From positions 1-58,222 of IMG/VR virus record IMGVR_UViG_3300037069_001350: a stretch of DNA of 58,222 nucleotides, one strand, 5' to 3'. Shown in pieces: positions 5,616 through 57,321 of this stretch; the first letter of the stretch is position 1; each line of letters starts with the position of its first letter. A program made the translations under genes and the position numbers. Below the pieces are notes generated by a model. The model searched no databases and was not told the origin of the DNA. It saw only the letters and a program-made list of their open reading frames with translations. This DNA comes from a virus (Duplodnaviria; Caudoviricetes).

Positions 5616-6056
5616 ATGAGGATCGCAAACACCGACGGCGCGACGACGATGCAGCACGACGGCGTCGACTACGAGGCCGACAAGCACGGCATGTTCACCG
5701 TGCCCGAGCACATCGGCCAGGCGCTGATCAAGTTCCCGCACTGGGTGCAGGAGCACGTCGCCCTGGCCCGCGGCGAGGCGTCGAAGCTGGCGCACGACGT
5801 CCAGCCCGAGCACATCATCGAGCGCGTCACGCAGCTGGAAGGCGATCTCGCCGGGCTCGCCTCGAAGGTCGAGCAGCTGCTCGGCATCGTCGCGAAGGTC
5901 GCCCCCGAGGCCGCGGCTGCGATCTCGGTCGCCGACCCGGCTGCCGCCCCGGCTGCTGCCGCCGTCGCCGGTGCTGTCGAGGCGGCGAACGCCACCGTCG
6001 ACAAGGTCGCCGCGAAGGTCACGAAGGCCACGTCCGCGAAGGCCGCGGCGAAGTGA
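5616..6056 (+). CDS. Hypothetical virion-operon protein
   Basis: AGGGGG RBS and ATG; coiled coil followed by Ala/Lys-rich tail. Confidence 0.7.
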   Translation: MRIANTDGATTMQHDGVDYEADKHGMFTVPEHIGQALIKFPHWVQEHVALARGEASKLAHDVQPEHIIERVTQLEGDLAGLASKVEQLLGIVAKVAPEAAAAISVADPAAAPAAAAVAGAVEAANATVDKVAAKVTKATSAKAAAK

Positions 6057-6568
6057 CCGCCGGACCGTCGCTGACGGTCCTGCTGCCCTACACCGACGAG
6101 AAGCTGGACCCGCGCTGCGTCGAACTGCTGCAGCGCCACGTCTGCACCGTCCGGCGCTACGCGGGCAGCTTCAAGGCCGTCCGGCTCGACCCTCGCGACA
6201 CGTCCGCCTACTTCCGGCTGGTCGAGTCCGAGTGGTCGCAGCCGGGCGACCTGGTGATCGTCGAGCACGACATCGGCATCCACCGCCACGTCATGCCCGC
6301 CTTCCTGGCCTGCCGCGAGCCCTGGTGCGGCAACGCTTACGCGATCGGCGAGCAGATGCTCGTGTGCCTCGGCTGCACCCGCTTCACCGCCGAGTTGAAG
6401 GCCGCGGAGCCGGACCTGCTCAACGAGGTCGGCCAGGTCGGCAACGACGGCCTGCAGGCCCGCGACTGGCGTCGCCTCGACGTCCGCCTGGCCGACGCCC
6501 TGCACAAGCGCGGCTACCAGCACCACGAGCACACCCCGCCCGTGACGCACTACCACGAGTACCAGTGA
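6053..6568 (+). CDS. Small glycosyltransferase-like (GT-A fold) protein
   Basis: Hydrophobic strand ending in DLVIVEHDI (DxD-like), LGCTRF, C-terminal VTHYH; GTGA overlap. Confidence 0.55.
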   Translation: MTAGPSLTVLLPYTDEKLDPRCVELLQRHVCTVRRYAGSFKAVRLDPRDTSAYFRLVESEWSQPGDLVIVEHDIGIHRHVMPAFLACREPWCGNAYAIGEQMLVCLGCTRFTAELKAAEPDLLNEVGQVGNDGLQARDWRRLDVRLADALHKRGYQHHEHTPPVTHYHEYQ

Positions 6569-6578
6569 GGACCCGGCC

Positions 6579-7481
6579 ATGACCACGCCCGCCGCCGTCG
6601 CCCCGTACGTAGCCACCTACGCGAACCGCGTCCCGTACATCACGGTCGACGAGTTCCTGAACGCCCCGACCGGCGTCGACACCTCGCAGATCAAGCCCGG
6701 CTCGACGCCCACGGAGAACCGCGCCGCGCTCGCCCAGCTGATCCTGCGCGCATCGAGCGAGGCCGACAACATCGCCCGCCAGGTGCTCGCCGCCTCGACC
6801 GACATCCAGATCGGGCAGTACCGGGTCCGCTCGAACGGAACGATCCGCGTGCCCGTCGACTACACGCCACTGGTCGCCGTCACCGGCGTGAAGATCGGCA
6901 CCTCGCCGTCGAACCTGGCCGCGCTGACCGACCTGACCGGCCTGTGGCTGCAGCGCAAGGTCGCCTCGATCCCCGTCTACGGCCCGAGCTACACCCGCCA
7001 GATGGACAACCCGACGGCGACCGCCGACGTCGGCAAGGTCTACGCCCAGGTCACCTACGTCAACGGCTTCGCGAACACCTCGCTGGCCGCGGACGCCGCC
7101 CAGGGCGCGACCTCGATCACGCCGAAGGACACGACCGGCATCTGCCCCGGCCTGCAGCTGACCATCTACGACGCCACCGCGGCCTCGTGGGAGACCGTGA
7201 CGGTCGATCCGAGCTACACCTACGGCTCGGCCACCGTCCCGCTCACTTCGGCGCTGCAGTTCGCCCACACGTCCGGCACGGCGGTCTCCGCCTTCCCCGG
7301 CGACGTAAAACAGGCCGTCATCCACCTGACCACGTTCCTGATCAAGACGCGCGGCGCGGAAGCGATCGCCGTCGACGGCTACGGCTCCGAGCCCGGCCAC
7401 ACCGTCTCCGCGGAGGCGGGCGGCATCGAGGAGTACGACTGGGCCGTCGACCTGCTCGAACCGAAGCGGAGGGTCTGGTGA
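6579..7481 (+). CDS. Head-to-tail adaptor
   Basis: PYITVDEF...ILRASSEAD N-terminus, PGDVKQAVI...LLEP C-terminus; position. Confidence 0.7.
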   Translation: MTTPAAVAPYVATYANRVPYITVDEFLNAPTGVDTSQIKPGSTPTENRAALAQLILRASSEADNIARQVLAASTDIQIGQYRVRSNGTIRVPVDYTPLVAVTGVKIGTSPSNLAALTDLTGLWLQRKVASIPVYGPSYTRQMDNPTATADVGKVYAQVTYVNGFANTSLAADAAQGATSITPKDTTGICPGLQLTIYDATAASWETVTVDPSYTYGSATVPLTSALQFAHTSGTAVSAFPGDVKQAVIHLTTFLIKTRGAEAIAVDGYGSEPGHTVSAEAGGIEEYDWAVDLLEPKRRVW

Positions 7482-7996
7482 GTACCGCAACGGTGCGCGC
7501 CGCCGTCGCCGACTTCGTCACGACCGCCGCCGTGCCCGGTGTCGGCAAGGTGTACCGCGCGATCCCGTACTGGGCCGACGGTGCCGACTGGAAGCTGGAC
7601 TCGAAGCTGGGCAACGGCGCAGTGGTCGCCGTGCACATCGTCGAGGACGCCGAGCGGCGCAACACGCTGCCCGCGATCACCGGCCAGAAGCGCGTCGACT
7701 ACACCGTCGGCCTGGCGATCTACTACCAGTGGCTGATCCCGTCGGCCAGCCAGGCGTCGCACTCGACCGACGACTGGGTGGACGGGCTCGACCAGATCAT
7801 CGACGCCTTGAAGGCGGCGATCCGGCAGGCCCCCACGCTCAACGACTCGACGGTGATCTTCCAGGCCGGTCAGGGTCGCATCCACGAGACCATGCCGGAC
7901 CTCACCACGAAGCAGGGGATGCCCCGCCGCGGCGAGGGCAAGGTGCTCTGCTGGTCGGTCGTCGAACTCGGGGTCACCGAGATCATCGAGGGGTGA
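7478..7996 (+). CDS. Putative tail terminator / head-tail joining protein
   Basis: GTGA overlap with GGAGG RBS; size and position before the tail tube gene. Confidence 0.55.
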   Translation: MSTATVRAAVADFVTTAAVPGVGKVYRAIPYWADGADWKLDSKLGNGAVVAVHIVEDAERRNTLPAITGQKRVDYTVGLAIYYQWLIPSASQASHSTDDWVDGLDQIIDALKAAIRQAPTLNDSTVIFQAGQGRIHETMPDLTTKQGMPRRGEGKVLCWSVVELGVTEIIEG

Positions 7997-8000
7997 CGTC

Positions 8001-8573
8001 ATGGCGAAGCGACGCCGTCACCATCGCAAGCACTACCACTTGAAGCACAAGCGGAAGCGGTCGCGCCGTCGGCATCACCGGCGGCACTACCACTTGAAGC
8101 ACAAGCGACGCCGCGCCCACCTGAAACACCGCCGCCACCGGCGACGTCACAAGGGCAAGATCAAGCGCCACCGGCACGCCCGGCACCGGCGCAAGGTCAA
8201 ACGGCATCGCAAGCGTCACCGTCGCCGCCACCACGGCAAGCTGCGGAAGCGGCGGCACCGGCATCGGCACAGGCGGCACCGCCGCCGGGCTCGGAGGCAT
8301 CATCGCCGCCACTACCACTTGCGTCACAAGCGGCACTACCGCGGACGGCGGCACTACCACTTGAAGCACAAGCGCCGCTCGAAGCTGTCGCACACGAAGA
8401 AGCGGGTCAAGCGCGCCCGCAACGCGATCGGGCATCACCGCCACCAGCGCAACCACCTGCGGCATCTGCACCAGGGCCACATCCGGCACAAGGCCGCGGC
8501 GGTCCACACGAAGCATCACAAGCTGCGGAAGGCCCGCGTCTCGCGGTTCCGCAGCAGCCTGGGCCACCTGTAA
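8001..8573 (+). CDS. Protamine-like Arg/His/Lys-rich protein
   Basis: GAGGGG RBS; fills the gap between neighbouring genes exactly; about 72% R/H/K, no D/E; four HYHL(K/R)HKR repeats. Confidence 0.75.
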   Translation: MAKRRRHHRKHYHLKHKRKRSRRRHHRRHYHLKHKRRRAHLKHRRHRRRHKGKIKRHRHARHRRKVKRHRKRHRRRHHGKLRKRRHRHRHRRHRRRARRHHRRHYHLRHKRHYRGRRHYHLKHKRRSKLSHTKKRVKRARNAIGHHRHQRNHLRHLHQGHIRHKAAAVHTKHHKLRKARVSRFRSSLGHL

Positions 8574-8587
8574 CCGAGGAGATCGAC

Positions 8588-8839
8588 ATGCCCCGCTACC
8601 AGTACACCGACGTGCACGAGCGCGTCCTGACCGGGCTCGCGCACGGCGTGAACGCCAGCGTGACCCGCGACGGTGAACCGCTCGACGAGCAGGGCACCGT
8701 CGTCGCCCGACTCGGTGACGAGATCACCACGAACGACCCCTACGAGCACGCCTTCCTGGCCCTGCTCGACAAGCCCACGCCCCGGCGTCGCCGCGGCCAG
8801 AACGACGACACGGGCAGCGGCCCGGACACCCAGGAGTAA
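8588..8839 (+). CDS. Small hypothetical tail-region protein
   Basis: GAGGAG RBS; operon packing. Confidence 0.7.
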   Translation: MPRYQYTDVHERVLTGLAHGVNASVTRDGEPLDEQGTVVARLGDEITTNDPYEHAFLALLDKPTPRRRRGQNDDTGSGPDTQE

Positions 8840-8842
8840 GCC

Positions 8843-9829
8843 ATGACCACCACGTACTACCCCTCGAACCTGCAGTGGTTCGGGCTGGCGAAGGAAGCCA
8901 CGCCGGGCACCGCCGAGTCGATCCCGACCATCTGGGTGCCGGTCGACACCCCGAAGTGGTCGCCGAAGCTGACCATGCACACCGACCAGGCGATGCGCGG
9001 CTTCATGGGCGACGACTACCAGCAGGTCGCCGGGATGCGCTACGACGAGATCACCTACAAGACCTACGTCTACATGGACTCGATCTTCCCGCACCTGCTC
9101 GCCCTGCTCGGCCACGCCGACGTCGTCACCGGCACCGCCGACCCGGCCACGCACAAGACCGCGCTGAACAACGGCACCGGCACCGACAACGCCCAGCCCC
9201 CGACCTACACCGGCTTCTACTTCGACGCCGCCGGGAAGTGCTGGCAGGTGCCGGGCATGGTCATGGCCGAGTTGAAGCTGGACACGAAGGTCGACGAACT
9301 CGACACCGTCGATGTCACCTGGCACGGCCTGCCCGCCACCGCGATCGCCGCCCCGACCAACACCCCGACCACGAGCAAGCCGATGCCCGCCTGGAACTCG
9401 GTCATCTCGATCGGCGGCTCCGCGGTCTCGGCGTACTCCGAGGTGTCGCTGGACTACAAGCGCAACACGAAGCCGGTGAACACGATCAACGACTCGCAGA
9501 GCCCGCTCGGCATCTACGGCGGCGGGGTCTCGATCACCGGCACGCTCACCGCGGTCTACCAGGGCAGCACCGACTCGAACCTGGTCGACTTCCTGGCGAA
9601 CACCCAGCCGTCGCTGACGGTGAAGTGGTCGCCGGTCGGCGACGCGACCCACAACCTGACCCTGCAGCACTCGGTGGTCGCCTACGACTCCGCCGACCCG
9701 CAGGGCAGCGGCGACTGGATGGAGATTCAGTCGAACATCAAGGCGCTGATGAACGCCACCGACGCGCTCGACTCGAAGCTGTCGCCCGCGCAGGTCGTGT
9801 TCCTGACGCCCACCATCGCTCCGTTCTAA
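8843..9829 (+). CDS. Major tail (tube) protein
   Basis: FGLAKEATPGT N-terminus, QPPTYT motif; upstream of chaperone and tape measure genes. Confidence 0.8.
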   Translation: MTTTYYPSNLQWFGLAKEATPGTAESIPTIWVPVDTPKWSPKLTMHTDQAMRGFMGDDYQQVAGMRYDEITYKTYVYMDSIFPHLLALLGHADVVTGTADPATHKTALNNGTGTDNAQPPTYTGFYFDAAGKCWQVPGMVMAELKLDTKVDELDTVDVTWHGLPATAIAAPTNTPTTSKPMPAWNSVISIGGSAVSAYSEVSLDYKRNTKPVNTINDSQSPLGIYGGGVSITGTLTAVYQGSTDSNLVDFLANTQPSLTVKWSPVGDATHNLTLQHSVVAYDSADPQGSGDWMEIQSNIKALMNATDALDSKLSPAQVVFLTPTIAPF

Positions 9830-9855
9830 CCGATCAACCCAGGGGGCCACCCACC

Positions 9856-10359
9856 ATGATCAAGATTCACATTCCCGACGGCGAAGCCAGCATCCGTACC
9901 CTCGCCAACGAGGTCAGCCCGCGCCGTCGCCGCGAGATCGAACTGATCGCCGCGCGGCTCGGGCAGGTCCTGCCCGCCGTCCAGTCCGCCGCCCGCATCC
10001 TCGTCGACGGCGACGTCATGGACGACCGCTCGAAGCAGCGGCACAAGCAGGGGCCGCGCAAGGGCAAGCCGGTGTTCACCGGCGCGGACGTCGACCTCAC
10101 CGTGAAGCAGCTGCGCCTGCTGTCCGACCTCAACGACGCGATCGTCTGGTCACTGCTCGACGGCTGGACGCTGGACCTGCCGCTGCCGCGCACGCCCGAC
10201 GACCTGCTCGACCTGCCCGGCGACGTCTACGACGCGCTGCGCGAGCAGTGCTCGGCGGTCTACCTCGGCATCGACCCGACCGGCGGCTTCGGCCCCGGCG
10301 CACTGCCCGAGCCCGGCTCCGACGAGCCGCTGGACACGACGTCCCCTACTTCGGCCTGA
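9856..10359 (+). CDS. Tail assembly chaperone (gpG-like)
   Basis: AGGGGG RBS and ATG 9856; WTLDLP...LLDLP...YDAL motif; ends ...SPTSA. Confidence 0.75.
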   Translation: MIKIHIPDGEASIRTLANEVSPRRRREIELIAARLGQVLPAVQSAARILVDGDVMDDRSKQRHKQGPRKGKPVFTGADVDLTVKQLRLLSDLNDAIVWSLLDGWTLDLPLPRTPDDLLDLPGDVYDALREQCSAVYLGIDPTGGFGPGALPEPGSDEPLDTTSPTSA

Positions 10360-10577
10360 GACGCCTGCGCCGGGCGTATCAGGCCAAACGGTCCGGCGGT
10401 GAGCCGGGCGACCTCGACCCGCTCACCGCGGCAATGCTCCGCGAGAAGCGGTACCGCGAACTGATCCCCATGACTCACGAGCAGTACCTGGACGAGCCGT
10501 GGGACGTCATCGAGTGGACGTTGCGGATCGACAACATCCAGAGGGAGTTCGGTCATGGCGGTCGCGAATCTCAATGA
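10344..10577 (+). CDS. Tail assembly chaperone gpT-like extension, reached by -1 frameshift
   Basis: Open -1 frame with no convincing start of its own; TCC CCT ACT near the gpG stop; THEQYLDEPW motif. Confidence 0.6.
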   Translation, partial: PYFGLRRLRRAYQAKRSGGEPGDLDPLTAAMLREKRYRELIPMTHEQYLDEPWDVIEWTLRIDNIQREFGHGGRESQ

Positions 10578-10989
10578 GGTGATGGGGGCGATCGACCGGC
10601 TGCAGAAGAAGCAGTCGGTTATCGCCCGCATGACCGTCACCCGCGCCGCGGCCCGCGTCGAGGCGGTGGCGAAGAAGAACTTCGAGGGCGCGCACAAGCG
10701 CGGCGAGCCGCACGTCGGCGGTGCCTCGCCGAATGTCGTGAGCGGCACGCTGCGCCGCTCGATCACCCGCACCCAGGTGTTCCGCCTCGGCGAGACCGAC
10801 TGGGGCACGAAGGTCGGCCCGGCGACCGTCTACGCCCGCCGCATCGAACTGGGCTACCCCGGCGGCGGTCACGGACCGGGCCACCAGCGCACCCGAGCCT
10901 TCCCCTACTTCAAGCCAGCAGTGGACAAGGTCATCCCCGAGTTCCACGACATCGCCGCCGAGACCTGGAACCTGTACTTGCGGCACTAG
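10555..10989 (+). CDS. HK97 gp10-like tail completion protein
   Basis: PNVVSGTLRRSI...VGPATVYARRIELG...PYFKPA motifs. Confidence 0.75.
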   Translation: MAVANLNEVMGAIDRLQKKQSVIARMTVTRAAARVEAVAKKNFEGAHKRGEPHVGGASPNVVSGTLRRSITRTQVFRLGETDWGTKVGPATVYARRIELGYPGGGHGPGHQRTRAFPYFKPAVDKVIPEFHDIAAETWNLYLRH

Positions 10990-11001: not shown

Positions 11002-14000
11002 ATGGCCGAAGGCGGCGCGGGTCTGATCCCCCCTGTAGTGGTAACCCTCCGGGCGAAGGCCGGGGAACTGTTCAGCGAGTTCGGCAAGGTCAAGGACGAG
11101 ATCAAGCGCCTCGACCACGAGACCGAGGGCGGTCTGACCCGCGGCCAGAAGGCCATGCACGGCCTCGAAGCCGCTGGTCGCAAGCTGACCCTGGGCCTGG
11201 CCGGTGCCGCGATCGGCGGCGCTGCCGCCGCGGTGAAGCTGTCCGGCAACTTCGAGGAGGCGACGACCCAGCTGGTCACCGGCGCGGGCGAGTCCGAGGC
11301 GAAGATCGAGGACGTCCGCAAGGGCCTGCTGTCCCTCGCCCCCGCCGTCGGCCAGGGGCCGGAAGCACTCGCGAAGGGTATGTACCTGGTCGAGTCCGCG
11401 GGCTACCACGGCGCGCAGGGCCTCATGGTGATGAAGGCCGCGGCGCAGGGTGCCACGGTCGGTGCGACCGACACGGCCACCGTCGCCGACGCTCTCACCA
11501 CGGTGCTCACCGACTACGGCATCAAGGCCAACCAGGCGGGTGTCGTCACCTCGAAGCTGGTCGCCACCGTCGCGTCCGGCAAGACCACGATGGGCGACCT
11601 CGCGGGCTCCCTGCACAACGTGGTGCAGCGCGCCGCGTCCGCCGGTGTCGGGCTGAACCAGGTCCTCGGTGCTATGGCGACGATGACCTCCCAGGGCATC
11701 TCCGCCGACCAGGCGTCGCAGGACCTCGCCAACGCGATCCAGTCCCTCGAAAACCCGACCCAGGGTCAGACGAAGGAGATGCAGCAGCTGGGGTTGAAGT
11801 CCGCGGACATCTCCCACAACCTCGGCAAGCGCGGCCTGACCGGCACGCTCGGCATCCTCGAAGGCGCTCTCGCGAAGCACATGCACGCGGGCTCGGTGTG
11901 GATGTCGACCTACAACAATCTCGCCGAGGAGACCGGCAAGGTCAACACGATGTTGAAGGCGCTGCCGCCTTCGATGCAGGGCATCGCTCGCGAGTACGCG
12001 AACGGCACGGTCACCTCGAAGCAGTGGCGTCACGCCATGATGGGGATGAACGTCGAGCAGAAGCAGCTGGCCCAGCAGTTCGCCGCCGGGGTGAACCGCA
12101 CCCGCGGCTTCAACTCGACGCTGACCGCGTCCGGCCCGTCGGCCCAGACCTTCGGCGCGGCGCTGGCGAAGCTGACCGGCGGCGCGACCGGCATGAACGT
12201 GGCCCTCGCGATCGGCGGGCAGCACGCCTCGACCTTCGCCGCCAACGTGAAGAACCTGGGCAGCACCACCACCGAGGCCGGTGGCAACGTGAAGGGCTTC
12301 GGGCTCGCCTCGAAGGACTTCAACTTCCAGCTGGCGCAGCTGTCCGCGGCTGCCCAGGCGCTCGCGATCAAGGTCGGCGACAAGCTGATCCCGGTGATCA
12401 TGTCGGTGGTCAACTTCTTCAAGTCGCACCGCTCGGCCACCATCGCCCTCGCTGCTGCGATCGGCGGCATCATGGTGCTCGCGATCGGCGCGTACATCTT
12501 GAAGCTGGCCCGCGCCGCGAAGGAAACGGTCACCTCCTACGGGAAGATGATCAAGGGCGGGTACGAGTGGCTGGCTAAGCTGATCAGCGGTAAGACCCAG
12601 GCGACCGCCGCCGAGAACAAGGCGGTCGCGAGCAAGGAGACCGCGGCCAGCCGCTCGGTCGAAGCCGACAAGGCCATGAGCGACGCGCAGAAGCGCGCCG
12701 CGATGATCGCCCAGCAGACCGCCGAGCAGCAGGCTCAGGCCGCGAGCATGGTCGCCGAGTCGCAGGCCAGCATGGCGACCGCCGCCGCGGAGTCGGCAGC
12801 GGCCCAGGAGGGCTCCGCCGCTGCCGTCGTCGGCGCTGACGAGGGCATGGCTGCCGCCGCCGAGACCACCGCTCCCGCGATCGAGACCGCAATGGGTCCG
12901 ATCGGCCTCGCGATCGGTGCGATCGGCCTCGTCGCGATGCTGCTCATGTCGCACTGGAAGCAGGTCTGGGGCGCGATCAAGGACGTCACGCGCATGGCGT
13001 GGAACGACGTGTTGAAGCCGGTGTTCGGCTTCATCATGGACGTCGCGATCAAGCCGATGATGGAGCAGATCAAGGTCCTGCAGGGCATCTGGAACACCGT
13101 GTGGGACACGATCTCCTCGGTGATCAAGGCCGTGTGGGATGACGGCATCAAGCCGGTGTTCGACTTCATCAAGAACAACTGGAAGCTGCTGCTGGAAGTC
13201 CTCGGCGGTGGCCTGGTCCTGCTGATCACGCACTGGAAGCAGGTGTGGGGCGCGATCGAGCGGGTCGCCCGCATGGTCTGGAACGACGTGTTGAAGCCGG
13301 TGTTCCACTTCATCTACGAGGTGGGCATCCGACCCGTCATGTCCGCCCTGGACTGGCTCGGTCGGGGCTGGTCGAACATCTGGAACGGCATCGGCAGCGT
13401 CGCGAGCGACGTGTGGAACAACGTCGTCAAGCCGGTGTTCGACTTCATCAACAACTACGGCATCCAGCCGATCGCCTCGGTGATCCAGTGGTTCGGCAAC
13501 CTCTGGCACTCGATCTGGAACGACGTCGGCCAGGTGATTCAGGACGTCTGGAACTGGATCAAGCCGATCATCGACACCATCAAGTCGGCCTTCGACGGGG
13601 TGATGTCGGTCGTGCACTCGGTCGGCAGCTTCATCGGCGGTGTCGGGCACGCGGTCGGCAGCTTCCTGGGCCTCGACACTGGTGGCCCGGTGCCGGGCGC
13701 TGTCGGTTCGCCTGTCCCGGCGATCGTGCACGGCGGGGAGTACATGCTCTCCGCGAACATGCTGTCCGGCAAGGCCCCGATCGACCCGCACGTCGTCGGT
13801 GCAGTCATGGCGAACGCCGCGGCTGACCCGGTCGCCGCGGCGCATCTCTCGAAGTCGGCCAGCTACGGCGGCGGCTCCGCGGGTGCACTGCTCGGCGGCG
13901 GGCACGGCGGCGGCTCGGGCGGCTCCGGTGGCGGCGGTTCGACCGTCGTCGTCCAGGGCTCGGTGATCGACATGCAGGGTCTGTTCCAGGCCATGCAGAC

Positions 14001-14061
14001 CGCGGCGCTTCGCCACGGCACTCAGAACGCCCAGACCTGGGCACCGTTCAAGCGGGGGTAG
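11002..14061 (+). CDS. Tape measure protein
   Basis: 1019 aa, Ala-rich helical; periodic Trp repeats with an internal 93-aa duplication (12952 and 13231); GGPVPG...AIVHGGEY motif. Confidence 0.92.
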   Translation: MAEGGAGLIPPVVVTLRAKAGELFSEFGKVKDEIKRLDHETEGGLTRGQKAMHGLEAAGRKLTLGLAGAAIGGAAAAVKLSGNFEEATTQLVTGAGESEAKIEDVRKGLLSLAPAVGQGPEALAKGMYLVESAGYHGAQGLMVMKAAAQGATVGATDTATVADALTTVLTDYGIKANQAGVVTSKLVATVASGKTTMGDLAGSLHNVVQRAASAGVGLNQVLGAMATMTSQGISADQASQDLANAIQSLENPTQGQTKEMQQLGLKSADISHNLGKRGLTGTLGILEGALAKHMHAGSVWMSTYNNLAEETGKVNTMLKALPPSMQGIAREYANGTVTSKQWRHAMMGMNVEQKQLAQQFAAGVNRTRGFNSTLTASGPSAQTFGAALAKLTGGATGMNVALAIGGQHASTFAANVKNLGSTTTEAGGNVKGFGLASKDFNFQLAQLSAAAQALAIKVGDKLIPVIMSVVNFFKSHRSATIALAAAIGGIMVLAIGAYILKLARAAKETVTSYGKMIKGGYEWLAKLISGKTQATAAENKAVASKETAASRSVEADKAMSDAQKRAAMIAQQTAEQQAQAASMVAESQASMATAAAESAAAQEGSAAAVVGADEGMAAAAETTAPAIETAMGPIGLAIGAIGLVAMLLMSHWKQVWGAIKDVTRMAWNDVLKPVFGFIMDVAIKPMMEQIKVLQGIWNTVWDTISSVIKAVWDDGIKPVFDFIKNNWKLLLEVLGGGLVLLITHWKQVWGAIERVARMVWNDVLKPVFHFIYEVGIRPVMSALDWLGRGWSNIWNGIGSVASDVWNNVVKPVFDFINNYGIQPIASVIQWFGNLWHSIWNDVGQVIQDVWNWIKPIIDTIKSAFDGVMSVVHSVGSFIGGVGHAVGSFLGLDTGGPVPGAVGSPVPAIVHGGEYMLSANMLSGKAPIDPHVVGAVMANAAADPVAAAHLSKSASYGGGSAGALLGGGHGGGSGGSGGGGSTVVVQGSVIDMQGLFQAMQTAALRHGTQNAQTWAPFKRG

Positions 14062-14063
14062 CT

Positions 14064-15038
14064 ATGAGTTCCACCCTCGTGTACCCGTCGCGGCTGGTGA
14101 AGGTCGGCATCGGGAAGGAGTCGACCTTCGGCACCGCCGTCGCCCCTGCCGCGGGGCTGGCGGTGGCCGCGCCGGGCGTCAGCGACAAGCACGCGACGAT
14201 CGTCGACACCGGGTGGCGGCAGTCGACCGCAGCCAGCTACGGGCACCAGCCCGGCCCGCTGGATTCGGCTGTCTCCCTCGGTGGCCCGGCGTTCGTCGAC
14301 GCGCTCGGGTGGCCGCTGGCGGGCGTGCTCGGTGATCACACGGTCACCGGCACGACCGCCCCGTACACGCACACCCTGGCCCTGCTGAACAGCGGCTCGA
14401 TGCAGCCGTCGAGCTACACGGTGACGCTCGACGACCCGGTCGGCGCGCTCGCCTACCCCGGCTGCCGCTGGTCCGGCTTCACGCTCACCGCGAACGCCGA
14501 CGGCCTGCTCACCTGGGGCGGCACCCTCGCCGGGCTCAACCCCGGCGCAGGCAGCGTCCCCCCGGCCCCCGCAGTGGTGCTGCCGATGCCCGGCTGGTCC
14601 GGCGTCGTCACCATCGGCGGGTCGGTCGAGTCGCGCGTGCTCGACCTCAGCGTGTCGATCACCCGGCAGCTGACCGCGAAGCGCAACACGAACGGCCAGC
14701 AGACCCCGAACAACATCCAGGCTGGGGCGCTCGCCGTCAGCGGGCAGGCGACACTGCTGATCCACAACGACAACTACCGCAGCAGCCTGCTCAACGCGAG
14801 CAGCCTCGCGATCGACGCGACCTGGTCGCAGGGTGCGGGCGCTGCCTCGCAGCAGATCACCCTGCACTCGTCCGCCTGCGTGCTCGACGCGGCCAGCCGC
14901 GCCTACGTGGGCGACTGGGTCGAGGTGCAGCTGGGCTGGACGGCGGACGCGAACACGACCGACGCCGGTGCCTCCGGTGGCAAGTCCCCCATCAAGGCCA
15001 CCCTGATCAATGCGGTCGGGGCCGGTCTCTACACGTAG
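14064..15038 (+). CDS. Second tail-tube-like protein (paralog of 8843-9829)
   Basis: YPS...GIGKESTFGTA; LG..VTGT..P.TH..AL.N; QPSSYT; PMPGW; similar length. Confidence 0.7.
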   Translation: MSSTLVYPSRLVKVGIGKESTFGTAVAPAAGLAVAAPGVSDKHATIVDTGWRQSTAASYGHQPGPLDSAVSLGGPAFVDALGWPLAGVLGDHTVTGTTAPYTHTLALLNSGSMQPSSYTVTLDDPVGALAYPGCRWSGFTLTANADGLLTWGGTLAGLNPGAGSVPPAPAVVLPMPGWSGVVTIGGSVESRVLDLSVSITRQLTAKRNTNGQQTPNNIQAGALAVSGQATLLIHNDNYRSSLLNASSLAIDATWSQGAGAASQQITLHSSACVLDAASRAYVGDWVEVQLGWTADANTTDAGASGGKSPIKATLINAVGAGLYT

Positions 15039-18932: not shown

Positions 18933-19880
18933 ATGGCTCTCTACGCCTTCGACGGCGCGTCGCCGTCGTTCGACCTGGCCGCGAGCAAGGCCGCGGGCGG
19001 CATCGTCGTCTCGGTCTACGTCGTCGGCAACCCTGGCGGCATGGCCCACGCCGACGCCGCCCGTGTCGCTGCGATCCGGGCGGCTGGCATGGGCGCACTG
19101 CCGAACTGGGAGCGCGCCGCTGGCTACTTCGACACCTGCACCGTCGCCGAGGCGAAGGCTGCCGGGGTCGAGGCGCTGGCCGCGTGCAAGTCGCTCGGCT
19201 TCCCCGCCGACGGCTCGATCGCCTGCGCGTTCAGCTTCGACTTCGACTGCCCGGCGTCCCGGTTCGCCGAGATGGGCGCGAAGGTCGACGCGGTCACCGC
19301 CGGGCTCACCGGCGCGTACCTCGTCATGGTCTACGCGCAGCAGGACCTGATCGACTACCTGGTCGCGCACGGGCACCTGCACGGCAAGCAGTGGCTTATG
19401 GCCTCGACCTGGGGCAATCCCTACCACCCGTCCGACGCGAACGTCTGCGTCGTTCAGGGCCACGACGTGAACGGCAACTGGGTGAACGACCCGGTCGTCA
19501 GCACCGACATCAACACGGTCACCGACCCGCACGCGCTGCGGGCCTGGTGGCCGGATAACTCGCCCTACGGAGGCACCATCATGGACGCAGCAACCGCCGC
19601 CCGCTTCGACAAGATCGACGAGCGCCTGACCGCGCTGTTCGCGACCGACACCGACGGCAGCGGCAAGCCCGAGGTCACCGGCACCGTGCAGGGCGCGATC
19701 AAGTACACCGTGCCCGGCGAACTCGCCGCCGCACTCGCGCCGGTGCTCGCCGCGCTCGCCAGCCTGCAGTCGGCGGTCACCGACCTGCAGGCCGCGGTCG
19801 CGAGGGTGCAGACCGGCGGTGTCGACCCGGTCGCGCTGGCCGAGGCGATCGCGCAGCACATCAAGCTGGCCCCGCAGTAG
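18933..19880 (+). CDS. Endolysin, DUF1906/GH25-like glycoside hydrolase
   Basis: LGFPADGSIACAFSFDFD motif, DIN near the domain end, C-terminal helical region; position after tail genes. Confidence 0.75.
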   Translation: MALYAFDGASPSFDLAASKAAGGIVVSVYVVGNPGGMAHADAARVAAIRAAGMGALPNWERAAGYFDTCTVAEAKAAGVEALAACKSLGFPADGSIACAFSFDFDCPASRFAEMGAKVDAVTAGLTGAYLVMVYAQQDLIDYLVAHGHLHGKQWLMASTWGNPYHPSDANVCVVQGHDVNGNWVNDPVVSTDINTVTDPHALRAWWPDNSPYGGTIMDAATAARFDKIDERLTALFATDTDGSGKPEVTGTVQGAIKYTVPGELAAALAPVLAALASLQSAVTDLQAAVARVQTGGVDPVALAEAIAQHIKLAPQ

Positions 19881-52755: not shown

Positions 52756-54207
52756 GTGGCCGAGCCTTACGACGCCCGGCACATGCGCGACATTCACGAC
52801 GCCGCCCTGGCCGCGCTGATCCCGGCCCGCCTCGTCCGACCGTGGAAGCTGCTGGCCCGCCCGGAGCAGGTCGCCCCGGACGGCGAGTGGCTGGTCTGGA
52901 TATTCCTGGCCGGACGCGGCGCGGGTAAGACACGCTCCGCCGCGGAGCAGGTGTGCGAGTGGGCCGAGGATCACCCCGGCTGCCGCATCGCCCTGGTGGG
53001 CCGCACACCCGCCGACGTCCGTGACGTGATGATCGAGGGCGAGTCCGGCATCCTCGCCTGCTCCGACGACGAGCACCGGCCCGTCTACGAGCCGACGAAG
53101 CGCCGCCTGACCTGGCCGAACGGCTCGACCGCCACCGCCTACTCCGCCGAGGTGCCGTCGGCGCTGCGCGGCCCGCAGCACCACTTCGCCTGGGCCGACG
53201 AGAACGCCGCCTGGTCGGAGGCCCCGAAGGGCGACGTCGTCGACACGGCGTGGAACAACCTCATGCTGGGCCTGCGCCTCGGCCAGTCTCCGCGGTGCAT
53301 CGTCACCACGACCCCGAAGCCGAACCGGCTGATCCGCGACATCCTCGGTCGACGGTCCACCGTCGTCTCGCGCGGGACCACCTACGACAACCTGTCGAAC
53401 CTGGCCCCCGCCTTCCGCGAGCAGGTGCTCGCCACCTACGAAGGCACCCGCATCGGGCGGCAGGAACTGCAGGGCGAACTGCTCGACGACGTCGAGGGTG
53501 CCCTCTGGGGGTCGGCCATGATCGAGGACCACCGCATCCTGCACGGCGACCCGGTACCGGACATGCGCCGCATCGTCGTCGGTGTGGACCCGTCCGGCGG
53601 CTCCGGTCCCGAGAACGACGAGCAGGGCATCGTCGTGGCAGGCATCGGGGTGGACGGCGAGTTCTACGTGCTCGACGACAAGTCCTGCAAGCTGTCGCCG
53701 CACGGCTGGGGCTCACGCGCTGTCGGTGCCTTCGAGCAGTGGGGCGGCGACCGGATCGTGGCCGAGAAGAACTACGGCGGCGAGATGGTGCTGTCGACGA
53801 TCAAGCAGGTCGACTCGAAGGTGCCGGTGAAGCTGGTGTCGGCGAGCCGCGGCAAGGCGGTCCGCGCCGAGCCGATCGCCGCCCTGTACGAGCAGGGCAA
53901 GGTGCACCACGTCGGGTCGTTCCCGCAGTTGGAGGACGAACTGACCACCTGGGCTCCGTTCGACGCGGCCCAGAAGGACTCACCGAACCGGCTGGACGCG
54001 CTCGTGTGGGCGCTGACCGACCTCGCCTTCAACGGCGGGCAGGGCCGGGCGTTCATCGAGCACTGGAAGCGGCAGACCGCGCCCGACCCGGCTGACACCT
54101 CGGCCACCCCCGTGCGTAGCTCGGCACGGAACTGGCGCGAGATCGCCGACCAGATCAAGAAGGAACGCGGCGGTCAGCCGCGCACACGGGAGGACGGACA
54201 TGGCTAA
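52756..54207 (+). CDS. terL: Terminase large subunit
   Basis: AGRGAGKT Walker A, LRGPQ...WADE, TTTP, VGVDPS, EKNYGG and DSPNRLDAL. Confidence 0.96.
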   Translation: MAEPYDARHMRDIHDAALAALIPARLVRPWKLLARPEQVAPDGEWLVWIFLAGRGAGKTRSAAEQVCEWAEDHPGCRIALVGRTPADVRDVMIEGESGILACSDDEHRPVYEPTKRRLTWPNGSTATAYSAEVPSALRGPQHHFAWADENAAWSEAPKGDVVDTAWNNLMLGLRLGQSPRCIVTTTPKPNRLIRDILGRRSTVVSRGTTYDNLSNLAPAFREQVLATYEGTRIGRQELQGELLDDVEGALWGSAMIEDHRILHGDPVPDMRRIVVGVDPSGGSGPENDEQGIVVAGIGVDGEFYVLDDKSCKLSPHGWGSRAVGAFEQWGGDRIVAEKNYGGEMVLSTIKQVDSKVPVKLVSASRGKAVRAEPIAALYEQGKVHHVGSFPQLEDELTTWAPFDAAQKDSPNRLDALVWALTDLAFNGGQGRAFIEHWKRQTAPDPADTSATPVRSSARNWREIADQIKKERGGQPRTREDGHG

Positions 54208-56032
54208 GAACCGCAACCGCCGCCCTGCCGCTCGGGCGCAGGTCGTGAAGAACACCGCGGTCGTGTCGAGCCCGCAGACGCCGCCGGACGTCGAGCAGGC
54301 GCTCGTGGCGCAGGGCATGACCTCGACGTCGCCGTTCGGGCCGGGTACGCCGCTGCGCCCCTACATCGGCATCTCGGTGCCGCCGCGGGTCAACGACTAC
54401 CCGGTCGGCGTGAACATCGCCGTCCGCACCCGCCAGTCGTGGAACCTGATGTCGTTCGACACGATCAAGGCCCTGATCGACGGCTATGACGTGGCCCGCA
54501 TGTGCATCAACCACAAGATCGACGAACTGCGCTCGATGGAACCGATGTTCGTCCCCGCCGACGGGCACTCCGGTGCCGCCGTCGACGCAGCCTGCGACAC
54601 CGCCCGCGCCGCGATGGAGTTCCCTGATAGGGAACTGCCGTTCGACGGGTGGCTGAACAAGCTGATGGAGAACGCGCTGCGCTACGACACCCCGACGCTG
54701 TATCGCCGCCGCAACCTCAACGGCGACGTGATCGGGCTCGACGTCATCGACGGCACCACGATCTACCCCTACATCGACGAGCGTGGCCGCAAGCCCCGGC
54801 CCCCGGCCCCCGCCTACTACCAGCTGATCCACGGCACCGTCTGGGACCACTTCACCTCGAACGACCTGATCTACCAGCCGTTCCGCCCGCAGTCGAACCA
54901 CCCGTACGGCCTCGCGCCGATGGAGTCGCTGCTGCTCACCGCCAACACCGACATCCGGTTCCAGTGGCACTTCATGCAGATGTTCACCGACGGCTCGATC
55001 CCCGGTGGCTTCGTCGAGGTGCCGCCGGACATCTCCTCCCCGGACCAGGTCGCGGAGTGGCAGGACTACTGGGACGCGATGGTCCTCGGCGACCAGGCGA
55101 AGATGCACCAGCTGCTCGCCGTCCCGAACGGCACGAAGGTGACCGGCACGAAGCCGGACGCCTTCGACTCGTCCTTCCCCGAATACCTCATGGCCCGCAC
55201 CTGCGCCGCGTTCGGCGTGGTCCCGCAGGACCTGGGTCTGGTGAAGGACGTGAACCGGGCGAACGGCGAGACGCAGGTCGACATCCAGTTCCGCGTCAAC
55301 ACCCTGCCCTGGGTCCGTTGGATCGAGGGAATCGCCACCCGCTACCTCCGGTATGACCTGGGTCTGCCGGTGAAGATGCAGCTGGACACGGGCCGCGACA
55401 AGGAAGATCGACTGTCCGAGGCGCAGGCGTGGCAGATTTACGTGCAGTCCGGCTTCGCCTCCGCTGACGAGGCCCGGCAGGAACTGCTCGGCTTGGAGAT
55501 CGACTCCGAGCGCCCGGTGCCCCGCTTCGTGCTCGACCCCCGCACGGGTCCGATCCCGCTGGCGAACATCGAGGCGATCGCCGGTCGCATCGACCCGGAG
55601 ACTGCCGCGCCGGTCGACGACCAGCCGCTGCCCACGGAGCCGTTCAACGGTGCCGAGGGTGTGCTGCCGGACAAGGCCCCCGGCGGGACGCAGTTCAAGC
55701 GCGCCCCGATCAACCCGGACGAGCCCCGCTTCCCCGAGATGGAGAAGCCGATCCCCGGCACCGACGTCGTCGGCACCCGGCCCGGCACCCCTGTCATCGG
55801 CGACCCCGGCGTCACGGAGGACTCGAAGCTGACCGAGCCGGTCGGCAAGGCCCTCGACCCGGCTGCCGCGGAGATGCAGGCGTTCAGCCGGTTCTGCAAG
55901 GCGCGCGCCCGTGCTGGCCGCTGGCGCGACTTCGAGTTCGAGCACGTCCCCGCGGGGATCGCTCGGGCGCTGAACGAGCACCACCGCGAGAGGATCACGA
56001 AGGCGGCTGATGCCGCCCCTTTCGCCCGGTAG
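54200..56032 (+). CDS. Portal protein
   Basis: IDGTTI.P, YGLAPME, FTDGSIP and AFGVVPQDLG...DVNRA motifs; follows terL. Confidence 0.92.
   Translation: MAKNRNRRPAARAQVVKNTAVVSSPQTPPDVEQALVAQGMTSTSPFGPGTPLRPYIGISVPPRVNDYPVGVNIAVRTRQSWNLMSFDTIKALIDGYDVARMCINHKIDELRSMEPMFVPADGHSGAAVDAACDTARAAMEFPDRELPFDGWLNKLMENALRYDTPTLYRRRNLNGDVIGLDVIDGTTIYPYIDERGRKPRPPAPAYYQLIHGTVWDHFTSNDLIYQPFRPQSNHPYGLAPMESLLLTANTDIRFQWHFMQMFTDGSIPGGFVEVPPDISSPDQVAEWQDYWDAMVLGDQAKMHQLLAVPNGTKVTGTKPDAFDSSFPEYLMARTCAAFGVVPQDLGLVKDVNRANGETQVDIQFRVNTLPWVRWIEGIATRYLRYDLGLPVKMQLDTGRDKEDRLSEAQAWQIYVQSGFASADEARQELLGLEIDSERPVPRFVLDPRTGPIPLANIEAIAGRIDPETAAPVDDQPLPTEPFNGAEGVLPDKAPGGTQFKRAPINPDEPRFPEMEKPIPGTDVVGTRPGTPVIGDPGVTEDSKLTEPVGKALDPAAAEMQAFSRFCKARARAGRWRDFEFEHVPAGIARALNEHHRERITKAADAAPFAR
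56017..56023 (+). other. -1 slippery heptamer C CCT TTC
   Basis: X XXY YYZ in the portal frame, two codons before its TAG; the -1 frame is the Nudix ORF. Confidence 0.7.
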
Positions 56033-57321
56033 CCGCCGGGCTCGCCGTGCAGGCCGCGGACACGGGTCGTGTCCTCATGCTGCAGCGGTCGATGAACGAC
56101 CCGTCGACCGCTACGGCAGGCATGTGGGAGTTCCCCGGCGGCTGCCTCGAAGCGGGTGAGTCCACCCGCGTCGGGGCGATGCGCGAATGGTGCGAGGAGG
56201 TCGGCCAGCTGCTGCCTCGTGGCGAACTGGCTGGCAGCTGGCGCACGCAGGTCTACGAGGGCCACGTCTGGTCGATCCCGTCCGAGGACGACATCGACCT
56301 GCTGGACCGGGACACGGTGAGCAACCCGGACGACCCGGACGGCGACGACATCGAGTCGATCGCCTGGTGGTCCCCGGAGCACCTGATCGGCAACCCCGCG
56401 GTCCGCACCGAACTGGCTGCGAGCCTCGACGTGGTGCTGCCCACCCTCGGTGTCGACCCGGTCGAGAAGTCGACCGACGACGACTGGCACGCCCACCCTG
56501 ACCGGCACGTCGAGCAGGCCCTCACCGGCTTCCACTCGCAGAACGTGCACGCCGCGATGGGCGACATGGTCACGCTCGACCAGCTGCGCGAGGTGGCTCG
56601 TAGCTACCTGGCGATCCACCGCCAGCCGGTCGTGAAGTTCGACGGGCAGGCCCGCGACGCCAACGGCAGGTTCGCCGCTGGCGGCATGGGTGGCAACGAC
56701 TCGGGCTCGAAGTCGTCGGGCTCGGGCTCGGCAGGCTCGGGCTCGGCAGGCGGCTACGCGGAGATCACCGCCGCTGACCTGCAGGCTGGCGACGGGTCGG
56801 CGAACAGCCGGGCCGTGTCGTCGAGCGAGTTCCAGGCGCTCGCCGCCGAGGGTCACGCCTCGATGGACGCCCGGATCGCCGCCTCGTCCCCGCCCACGGG
56901 GATCAGCAGCAACCTGGACGCGGTGAAGGCCAGCAGCTACGCCTCGGTGCAGGAGTCGTGGGGCGGCACCACGATCGACGCCCACACCGGCGCGCCGGTC
57001 GCGAGCAACGGGGCGAACGCCTACGCGCTCTCGATCAAGCCCGCCGGGGTGGCCTCGGTCAGCATCCCCGAGAACGCCACCGCGGCCCAGTTCGGGTCGG
57101 CGATGGACTCGGCGATGTCGCAGTTCCATGACCAGCTGTCGATCGCTGGCGCTCACCTCGGCGTGTTCCACAACGACGCAGGCGGCACCATCGAGATCGA
57201 CCCGACCCTGGTGGTCGGATCGCTGCACGAGGTCGAGACGATCGGCGCGTACACGCACGCCGTCGGCGGCGCGTACAACTTCGCCGACGGCAACGGCTAC
57301 TGGCCCCCGCACGTCGCCTGA
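56017..57321 (+). CDS. Nudix hydrolase domain plus C-terminal domain of unknown function; probable frameshift extension of the portal (first in-frame start is GTG 56047)
   Basis: WEFPGGCLEAGE...AMREWCEEVG Nudix box; ARDANGRF motif; Gly/Ser linker. Confidence 0.8.
   Translation, partial: PFRPVAAGLAVQAADTGRVLMLQRSMNDPSTATAGMWEFPGGCLEAGESTRVGAMREWCEEVGQLLPRGELAGSWRTQVYEGHVWSIPSEDDIDLLDRDTVSNPDDPDGDDIESIAWWSPEHLIGNPAVRTELAASLDVVLPTLGVDPVEKSTDDDWHAHPDRHVEQALTGFHSQNVHAAMGDMVTLDQLREVARSYLAIHRQPVVKFDGQARDANGRFAAGGMGGNDSGSKSSGSGSAGSGSAGGYAEITAADLQAGDGSANSRAVSSSEFQALAAEGHASMDARIAASSPPTGISSNLDAVKASSYASVQESWGGTTIDAHTGAPVASNGANAYALSIKPAGVASVSIPENATAAQFGSAMDSAMSQFHDQLSIAGAHLGVFHNDAGGTIEIDPTLVVGSLHEVETIGAYTHAVGGAYNFADGNGYWPPHVA

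Follow-up and report, generated by a model that had tools for sequence, protein, structure and literature searches.

Can a tailed phage encode, among the genes of its own tail, a protein made largely of arginine, histidine and lysine, and what might such a protein do there? The question is raised by an open reading frame of a soil phage, in a viral record of 58,222 bp (69.5% G+C, completeness estimate 92%), the whole of which is referred to below as the window. The frame, its start signal and its most visible repeats are the following:

8001..8573, + strand: polybasic ORF, 190 aa (R62, H47, K27, no D/E)
7988..7993, + strand: RBS-like GAGGGG, 7 nt 5' of the ATG of the polybasic ORF, read from the sequence
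8031..8054, + strand: repeat unit HYHLKHKR, copy 1, residues 11-18
8085..8108, + strand: repeat unit HYHLKHKR, copy 2, residues 29-36
8310..8333, + strand: repeat unit HYHLRHKR, variant copy, residues 104-111
8352..8375, + strand: repeat unit HYHLKHKR, copy 3, residues 118-125

Translation of 8001-8573(+) gives R/H/K at 136 of 190 residues (72%), histidine alone making up 25%, and no acidic residue, as the initial annotation had stated; the unit HYHL(K/R)HKR, which it placed at 8031, 8085, 8310 and 8352, was found at all four places. The estimated net charge of the protein is about +93 at pH 7 and about +132 at pH 5. For the other genes of the window (n=42), the R/H/K fraction has a median of 0.14 and a maximum of 0.24. 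At the DNA level, a 45-nt repeat family is present in six copies with spacings of 54, 144, 81, 42 and 102, each a multiple of 3. The stop codon of the upstream gene occupies 7994-7996 and the polybasic ORF begins 4 nt later; the downstream gene, preceded by GAGGAG, starts at 8588, 15 nt past the polybasic stop codon.

Gene neighbourhood

The genes surrounding the polybasic ORF are arranged as follows:

6579..7481, + strand: head-to-tail adaptor-like gene, 300 aa, 38-53% identical to the syntenic genes of relatives
7478..7996, + strand: predicted tail-terminator-fold gene, 172 aa, AF2 model with pLDDT 85.8, Foldseek matches
8588..8839, + strand: small acidic beta-protein gene, 83 aa, net charge -6, conserved downstream neighbour
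8843..9829, + strand: major tail (tube) protein gene, PF18906 Phage_tube_2, E 6.2e-19
11002..14061, + strand: tape measure protein gene, 1019 aa, net charge +5, PF10145, E 2e-29

The nearest cultured phages are the Arthrobacter phages Mufasa8 and Sonali, the major tail (tube) proteins of which are 52% identical to that of the window. Their counterparts of the 300-aa protein are annotated as head-to-tail adaptors; the protein itself has no match in Pfam or PHROGs. The 172-aa protein is predicted to possess a tail-terminator fold, its model matching, by Foldseek against the PDB, lambda gpU (3fz2, 3fzb), T5 p142 (8bcp), the R4C stopper-terminator complex (8gtf_k) and others, with E-values from 4e-5 to 1e-3 and TM-scores up to 0.55. 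About 60 aa of the 83-aa protein form a core that is conserved across 22 sequences; the AF2 model of the protein is all-beta (pLDDT 82), with no fold match in the PDB at E≤0.001. The acidic or Pro/Thr-rich tail of its homologues differs greatly in length, and the whole protein reaches 125 aa in the metagenome contig L066.

The tube gene is followed by a gene for a 144-aa protein and then by the tape measure gene. Upstream of the adaptor gene, in this permuted record, are the genes of the head (terminase, portal, NUDIX-domain protein, MuF-like, S78 protease and capsid). With a terminator-fold gene directly upstream and the tube gene after next, the polybasic gene therefore belongs to the tail module and not to the head-core genes, and the head "core protein" suggested in the initial annotation does not agree with this position. 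The assignment of an RBS-bearing ORF to a virion operon was sound: GAGGGG precedes the ATG, the terminator-fold gene lies upstream, and the GC pattern is coding-like.

Further observations concern other structural genes of the window. Right after the tape measure gene, at 14064-15038 (+), a second Phage_tube_2 protein is encoded (PF18906, E 2.4e-26), probably a distal tail protein on the tube fold. The gene at 56047-57321 (+) encodes 424 aa with a NUDIX domain at the N terminus (E 2e-14). Its neighbours are the portal gene (54200-56032) on one side and the MuF-like gene (35-1189, across the record ends) on the other, which places a hydrolase domain among the head genes. The Sonali annotation gives the portal and MuF-like portions as a single fusion protein. 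For the product of 18933-19880 (+), where the tail block ends, a weak Rv2525c-like glycoside-hydrolase-like match (E 3.8e-5, below cut-off) was obtained; this product may be a cell-wall-acting tail or lysis protein.

Occurrence of the polybasic gene in related phages

The loci fetched by tube-protein alignment comprise 23 viral contigs and 6 bacterial genomes or MAGs (Arthrobacter, Pseudarthrobacter, Marmoricola), and all of them share one gene order: adaptor, 172-aa protein, a variable gap, 83-aa protein and tube protein. After identical copies had been collapsed, 23 distinct junctions, the window included, were obtained from cultured phages, viral contigs and prophages. The gap holds an ORF of 94-216 aa in 21 of these 23, with 30-72% R/K/H, 0-2 acidic residues and a GC3 of 0.74-0.96. 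In Sonali the slot contains an unannotated ORF of 51 aa with 16% R/K/H (L001:8559-8714), a non-basic vestige consisting only of shortened end motifs and a Pro-rich linker. The slot of the contig L015 is empty (17-nt gap), and no copy of the gene was found elsewhere in that record (75% complete).

A second scan, of metagenome contigs, yielded 5 further junctions with a tube identity of 42-59%. The polybasic gene is present in two of them (L068 and L070) and absent in L065, L066 and L069; on the contig L067 a polybasic ORF is present and the terminator lies off the contig end. L066 is a contig of 2078 nt with 49% G+C, the adaptor, terminator and tube proteins of which are 43-59% identical to those of the window, and its terminator and 83-aa-like genes are adjacent. 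Across all junctions (n=28), an R/K/H-rich ORF with no or nearly no acidic residue occurs in 23, the 51-aa vestige in one, and nothing in four.

Among 23 more distant loci with 1 kb or more of DNA upstream and a tube identity of 27-36%, none contains an ORF of at least 60 aa that passed the composition filter. Thermoanaerobacterium phage THSA-485A has terminator-like and 83-aa-like genes that adjoin each other, the polybasic gene being absent. Since the 83-aa gene is kept even in this distant phage, it is an old part of the neck-tail module; the polybasic gene, missing in the distant relatives, is therefore an insertion confined to one clade of actinobacterial siphophages. It is dispensable, because several relatives are without it, and its absence from 4 of 28 junctions and from the distant relatives indicates that it is not required to build the tail.

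The position of the gene relative to the terminator is tightly kept. In each of the 22 distinct loci whose slot holds an ORF, counting the Sonali vestige, the start codon falls between 8 nt ahead of and 5 nt beyond the end of the terminator stop, and in 11 of the 22 it overlaps the upstream stop codon by 1 nt, as in coupled translation. The member from a cultured phage with a known host, Arthrobacter sp. ATCC 21022, is the following:

L002:8144-8617: Mufasa8 gene 10, annotated "hypothetical protein"

It contains ten tandem 27-nt (9-residue) repeats, nine of which encode PVYTHPRKK.

The tape measure proteins of the same phages were compared as well (18 distinct complete sequences). A polybasic stretch was found only in that of Sonali:

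L057:12194-16807: Sonali tape measure gene

The stretch is Pro/Lys/Val-rich and reaches a net charge of +15 over 40 aa at about 90% of the length (whole protein +72); the 40-aa peak of the other 17 proteins is at most +6. Compensation by tape measure charge for a missing polybasic gene was considered and set aside, as one of two phages lacking the gene against none of 16 bearing it is too small a number. The other phage without the gene (L015/L049) has no polybasic stretch in its tape measure protein. By the orientation seen in phage 80alpha, the Sonali stretch would also be near the distal tail end and not at the neck.

The polybasic protein family

Profile searches recovered 16 proteins from a set of 5.8 billion and 23 clusters among 1.84 billion representatives. 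The sole name among the family matches is "hypothetical protein", and no functional name occurs in the 23 clusters. Pooling the loci with the search matches gave 54 distinct sequences of 51-216 aa, of which the window protein has the highest R/H/K fraction (72%); 36 of the 54 contain no acidic residue. The members display characteristic features: (i) a basic N-terminal motif ending in HHRRYAGVRG, in the members that bear the C-terminal motif (22-sequence alignment); (ii) fast-changing middle repeats, of the types GYHVHRRKG/HPHKG, GRKKSxHKR/GLHRKFKGRK, Ala/Lys-rich H1-like, or PVYTHPRKK; (iii) a C-terminal SY(L/I/M)xMF at the exact end in 51 of 54 members, some with one extra G or S. The last motif was found in no other reading frame of the scanned loci. 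The repeat unit of the window (HYHLKHKR) is common to the search match P0014 (GYHLKHKR), with close variants in L004 and L027.

The number of histidines per protein ranges from 0 to 53 across the family and Arg+Lys stay high, so that pH or metal sensing, which the initial annotation had proposed on account of the histidines, does not characterise the family; His-richness marks some lineages only. Turnover of its repeats makes the gene evolve rapidly, as accessory or host-interaction genes do. The sequences represent a previously unnamed family of acid-free, R/K/H-rich, probably disordered proteins, with the window protein as its most extreme member.

Three members are without SY(L/I/M)xMF: the window protein, which ends in SSLGHL, and those of L005/6 and L017. 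A degenerate RRRHHRRHY of the window was aligned by MAFFT to the N-terminal motif HHRRYAGVRG at very low identity, and this trace is doubtful. A midpoint-rooted FastTree tree of adaptor, terminator and tube proteins from 20 loci places the window, L017, L005/6 and the gene-less L015 in one group (support 0.994); the motif-less, most basic forms and one loss of the gene therefore fall into one clade. Both end motifs appear to have been lost in this clade, the proteins of which may rely on charge alone.

Database searches with the family gave little else. Against the set of 5.8 billion proteins, the window protein produced 7207 candidates, none at E≤0.001, and in the ESM Atlas neither it nor one motif-bearing member had a usable match. 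In Pfam the window protein has no match at E≤0.1, and 22 members searched at E≤1 gave nothing except HC2 and one DUF; HC2 (PF07382) was matched weakly by two of the 22, with a best E of 0.005, below the gathering cut-off, and not by the window protein. No PHROGs family was found for the window protein or for 17 members, and no PDB sequence was matched at E≤1. Longer or fused forms of the family proteins were not found either, which is weak evidence. The earlier remark that such a protein is not a standard part of tailed phages agrees with the lack of Pfam, PHROGs, PDB-sequence and Atlas matches and with names that read only "hypothetical protein". No description of a disordered polycation in a siphophage tail module was found in the open-access literature, and, a few head-internal proteins aside, we know of none described as a regular part of that module.

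Coding status and selection

The ORF at 8001-8573 is very probably a real, late gene of the polybasic tail-module family. Its GC at the three codon positions is 0.72/0.45/0.88, a coding-like pattern for this genome. The GC3 of 0.88 compares with 0.93-0.98 in the neighbouring genes, CAT serves for 9 of 47 His codons (reference genes: 2%), and the neighbours show a stronger bias in their His and Arg codons; the weaker codon use and lower GC3 may therefore reflect relaxed constraint on the window copy. A frame open over 190 codons was obtained in 198 of 5000 mononucleotide shuffles (about 4%). Since the open frame by itself is weak evidence, the case for a gene is made by codon-position GC, synteny and selection in relatives.

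In 11 pairs of relatives, dN/dS in the polybasic frame is 0.22-0.75. When all six frames were compared in 7 pairs, the sense frame was always the lowest (0.22-0.51); four other frames gave 1.05-3.47, and the antisense frame sharing the wobble position gave 0.41-0.73. Frame and composition, the failure of which in syntenic relatives would, according to the initial annotation, have spoken against the gene, are accordingly kept in 23 of 28 junctions, with dN/dS lowest in frame. An opposite-strand ORF at 7983-8567 was rejected as the gene: its third position falls on the sense first position (GC 0.72), which makes a poorer fit, and dN/dS in its frame is above that of the sense frame in every pair of relatives tested.

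For the window type itself, the viral and metagenome scans with the tube protein gave no close relative suitable for dN/dS. The alignment-based metagenome scan contained relatives of the window at 59% identity or less only, and three soil DNA runs contain the window stretch without any difference. In the MAFFT alignment, identity to its first sequence (L027) is only 22-27% for the proteins of the window, L005/6 and L017, a level at which reliable alignment is not possible. The argument for selection is therefore compositional here. Together, the three proteins have no D/E in 610 residues and 61-72% R/H/K, with 190-216 codons open; since each His and Lys codon is one change away from Asp or Glu, selection on composition is indicated. 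A contig of one soil RNA library, about 86% identical, spans 8208-8479 free of gaps, a hint only, as DNA may be present in the library.

A search of Rfam over 7700-8900 gave no family near the gathering score, and a reading of the 8001-8573 region as RNA was set aside on this ground. No promoter-like site was found within 6000-10600 of the window, and terminator-like sites there are not commoner than in shuffles. In the contigs of the three soil DNA runs that match the window without difference, the repeat-rich first third of the ORF (8010-8192) has little or no cover: gaps extend over about 7888-8131 in run X4 and 7827-8192 in X5, and in X6 the depth is 0.33-1.4 over 8010-8131 with none over 8132-8192. 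These uncovered stretches carry no evidential weight. Short-read assemblies may often break or drop such repeat-rich genes.

Comparison with known polycationic proteins

The internal proteins of phage T4 vary between relatives. IPI, IPII and IPIII are presented, in the cited sections, as phage-encoded, dispensable virion cargo that leaves with the DNA (PMC9958956), and some T4 internal proteins as blocking host restriction (PMC9958956; PMC12373910). They share an accessory character with the polybasic family and constitute the nearest tailed-phage precedent for injected proteins. The T4 proteins are folded, encoded by head genes, provided with an N-terminal capsid-targeting sequence that is cut by the prohead protease, and present in about 360 copies each. 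In contrast, the polybasic protein is of low complexity, has no detectable similarity to them, and is encoded in the tail module, outside the portal-protease-capsid block.

The Arg-dominated proteins VII and Mu of adenovirus and P6.9 of baculovirus belong to animal and insect viruses of other capsid lineages. The cited parts of two papers describe them as very basic, acid-poor, low-complexity genome binders (PMC10548178, PMC5899202). The window protein differs in its 25% His, its place in a tail operon and its lack of Pfam membership. Chlamydial Hc2 is a DNA condenser; it has Ala/Lys/Arg-rich repeats like those of some members, and the matches to it (PF07382) are below cut-off and driven by composition.

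In the neck of phage 80alpha, as far as the cited sections describe it, gp56 and gp51 (tape measure N-termini, tail completion protein) are positive elements in a negative channel: the lining carries negative and the tape measure protein positive charge, and the tail completion protein, which presents a positive face to the DNA end, caps that end with aromatic and Arg side chains (PMC11661146). The polybasic family has a mix of basic and aromatic residues like these lumen components, and its gene adjoins the terminator. The 80alpha components are, however, helical, folded and of known families, whereas the polybasic protein has no predicted fold and its gene is additional to the tape measure gene. 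Histatins and histidine-rich glycoprotein are eukaryotic secreted His-rich binders of polyanions. Several members share His/Lys/Arg/Tyr-rich repeats (HPHKG, GYHxH) with such binders, a likeness of composition only, His-richness not being family-wide. Judged by its sequences, the family may be regarded as a new, unannotated one within the known viral polycationic nucleic-acid-associated proteins, with a putative function.

Putative function

The initial reading is thus supported in part: the product is a conserved polycation of the virion operon, its gene belongs to the tail module and not to a head core, and a His switch is no family trait. As for its role, we tentatively favour a dispensable virion polycation that would be located at the head-proximal tail or neck channel and bind the leading DNA end, a reading that is possible and not the only one. 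What suggests a place in the virion for the family proteins is the position of the gene, and what suggests DNA binding, condensation and nuclease shielding is composition. The 'neck' gene product of phage T5 is reported, in the section cited, at the tail tip (PMC11784142), so gene position can mislead.

According to the proposal, the abutting or overlapping genes would lead to joint synthesis of the polybasic protein and the terminator, and a few copies of the former would be built into the head-proximal tail end or the neck channel, the lining of which is negative in siphophage necks of known structure. Most members would be held there by the basic N-terminal motif and the exact C-terminal SY(L/I/M)xMF, with the polycationic middle bound to the packaged DNA at its leading end. 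At infection the protein would exit with the DNA or just before it, its first few hundred bp being neutralised or shielded; six copies of the window protein, at +89 each, would correspond to the phosphate charge of about 270 bp of DNA. In the window's clade, with the end motifs apparently gone, charge alone would have to act. Dispensability, repeat turnover and gains and losses would fit an accessory role, for example the protection of entering DNA. Counting against the proposal are the apparent lack of both putative docking motifs in the window's clade and the deletion of the gene in the sister lineage L015.

A bolder version appears rather unlikely. It would make the protein a tail "protamine", a few unstructured copies of which sit in the channel of the neck or upper tail, hold the leading end of the DNA fast, enter the cell and coat the first few hundred bp against nucleases or defence sensors. 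The repeat turnover, the gains and losses and the charge-only form would then be traces of an arms race with actinobacterial defences.

Other placements of the protein have to be weighed against the neck channel. A head-internal protein, condensing DNA or neutralising its charge and packaged in many copies with the genome like the T4 internal proteins or adenovirus VII/Mu, is unlikely. It would suit an extreme polycation without acidic residues, and could draw on the Ala/Lys repeats and weak PF07382 matches of some members and on T4 internal proteins, which the cited sections call likewise dispensable and injected (PMC9958956). Yet the gene follows the terminator in the tail part instead of lying among the portal, protease, scaffold and capsid genes, and in seven roughly complete genomes of 55.6-61.1 kb the net charge of the polybasic protein, between +4 and +89, does not visibly follow genome length. 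The tails of siphophages, moreover, assemble separately from the heads. A polycation exposed on the neck or tail surface, sticking the particle to anionic cell-wall polymers of actinobacterial hosts and so helping adsorption, is likewise unlikely: a folded anchoring or receptor-binding domain is absent, the gene is not close to the tail-tip or fibre genes, and an unbound polycation (+50 to +108), on a particle rich in DNA-binding surfaces, would more probably end up inside a negative channel. What speaks for it is presence/absence and fast repeat turnover like those of host-range genes, the restriction of the gene to a clade that includes actinobacterial phages and prophages, and the adjoining small beta protein with variable acidic or Pro-rich tails, as surface decorations often have.

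Nor is it likely that the late product acts outside the particle, for example by helping the negatively charged tube or terminator to assemble, by aiding packaging, or by condensing host or phage DNA inside infected cells. The composition fits any binder of nucleic acids or polyanions, and tail operons are known to encode chaperones absent from the virion; known tail chaperones, however, sit between the tube and tape measure genes, a slot that is occupied here too, and a strictly terminal C-end motif (51 of 54) suggests a docking peptide over a free condenser. For the window's clade, a drifting or decaying remnant with little or no function left, kept open by T-poor repeats that rarely yield stops, is decidedly unlikely. 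In its favour are the apparent loss of the end motifs from the window, L005/6 and L017, the absence of the gene from the fourth lineage in this well-supported clade, the shuffles that stay open by chance, and the poorer codon use of the window ORF. Against decay stand three diverged lineages with long open frames, no D/E in 610 residues and an R/H/K content of 61-72%, the retained RBS and tight spacing, and the RNA-library contig that is gap-free over 8208-8479. The tail-channel polycation remains our preferred reading.

The usual view is that tailed phages pack bare DNA with small counter-ions. The gene described here encodes a polycation, is selected clade-wide, and is annotated only as hypothetical or not at all, with a member in the tractable phage Mufasa8. 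Because virion proteomics with trypsin and homology searches with composition correction both largely miss proteins of this kind, similar genes may have been overlooked elsewhere. If the protein is present in the particle, it would bear on how the neck holds and releases the DNA end, on the protection of entering DNA, and on the origin and turnover of low-complexity proteins in phage structural operons.
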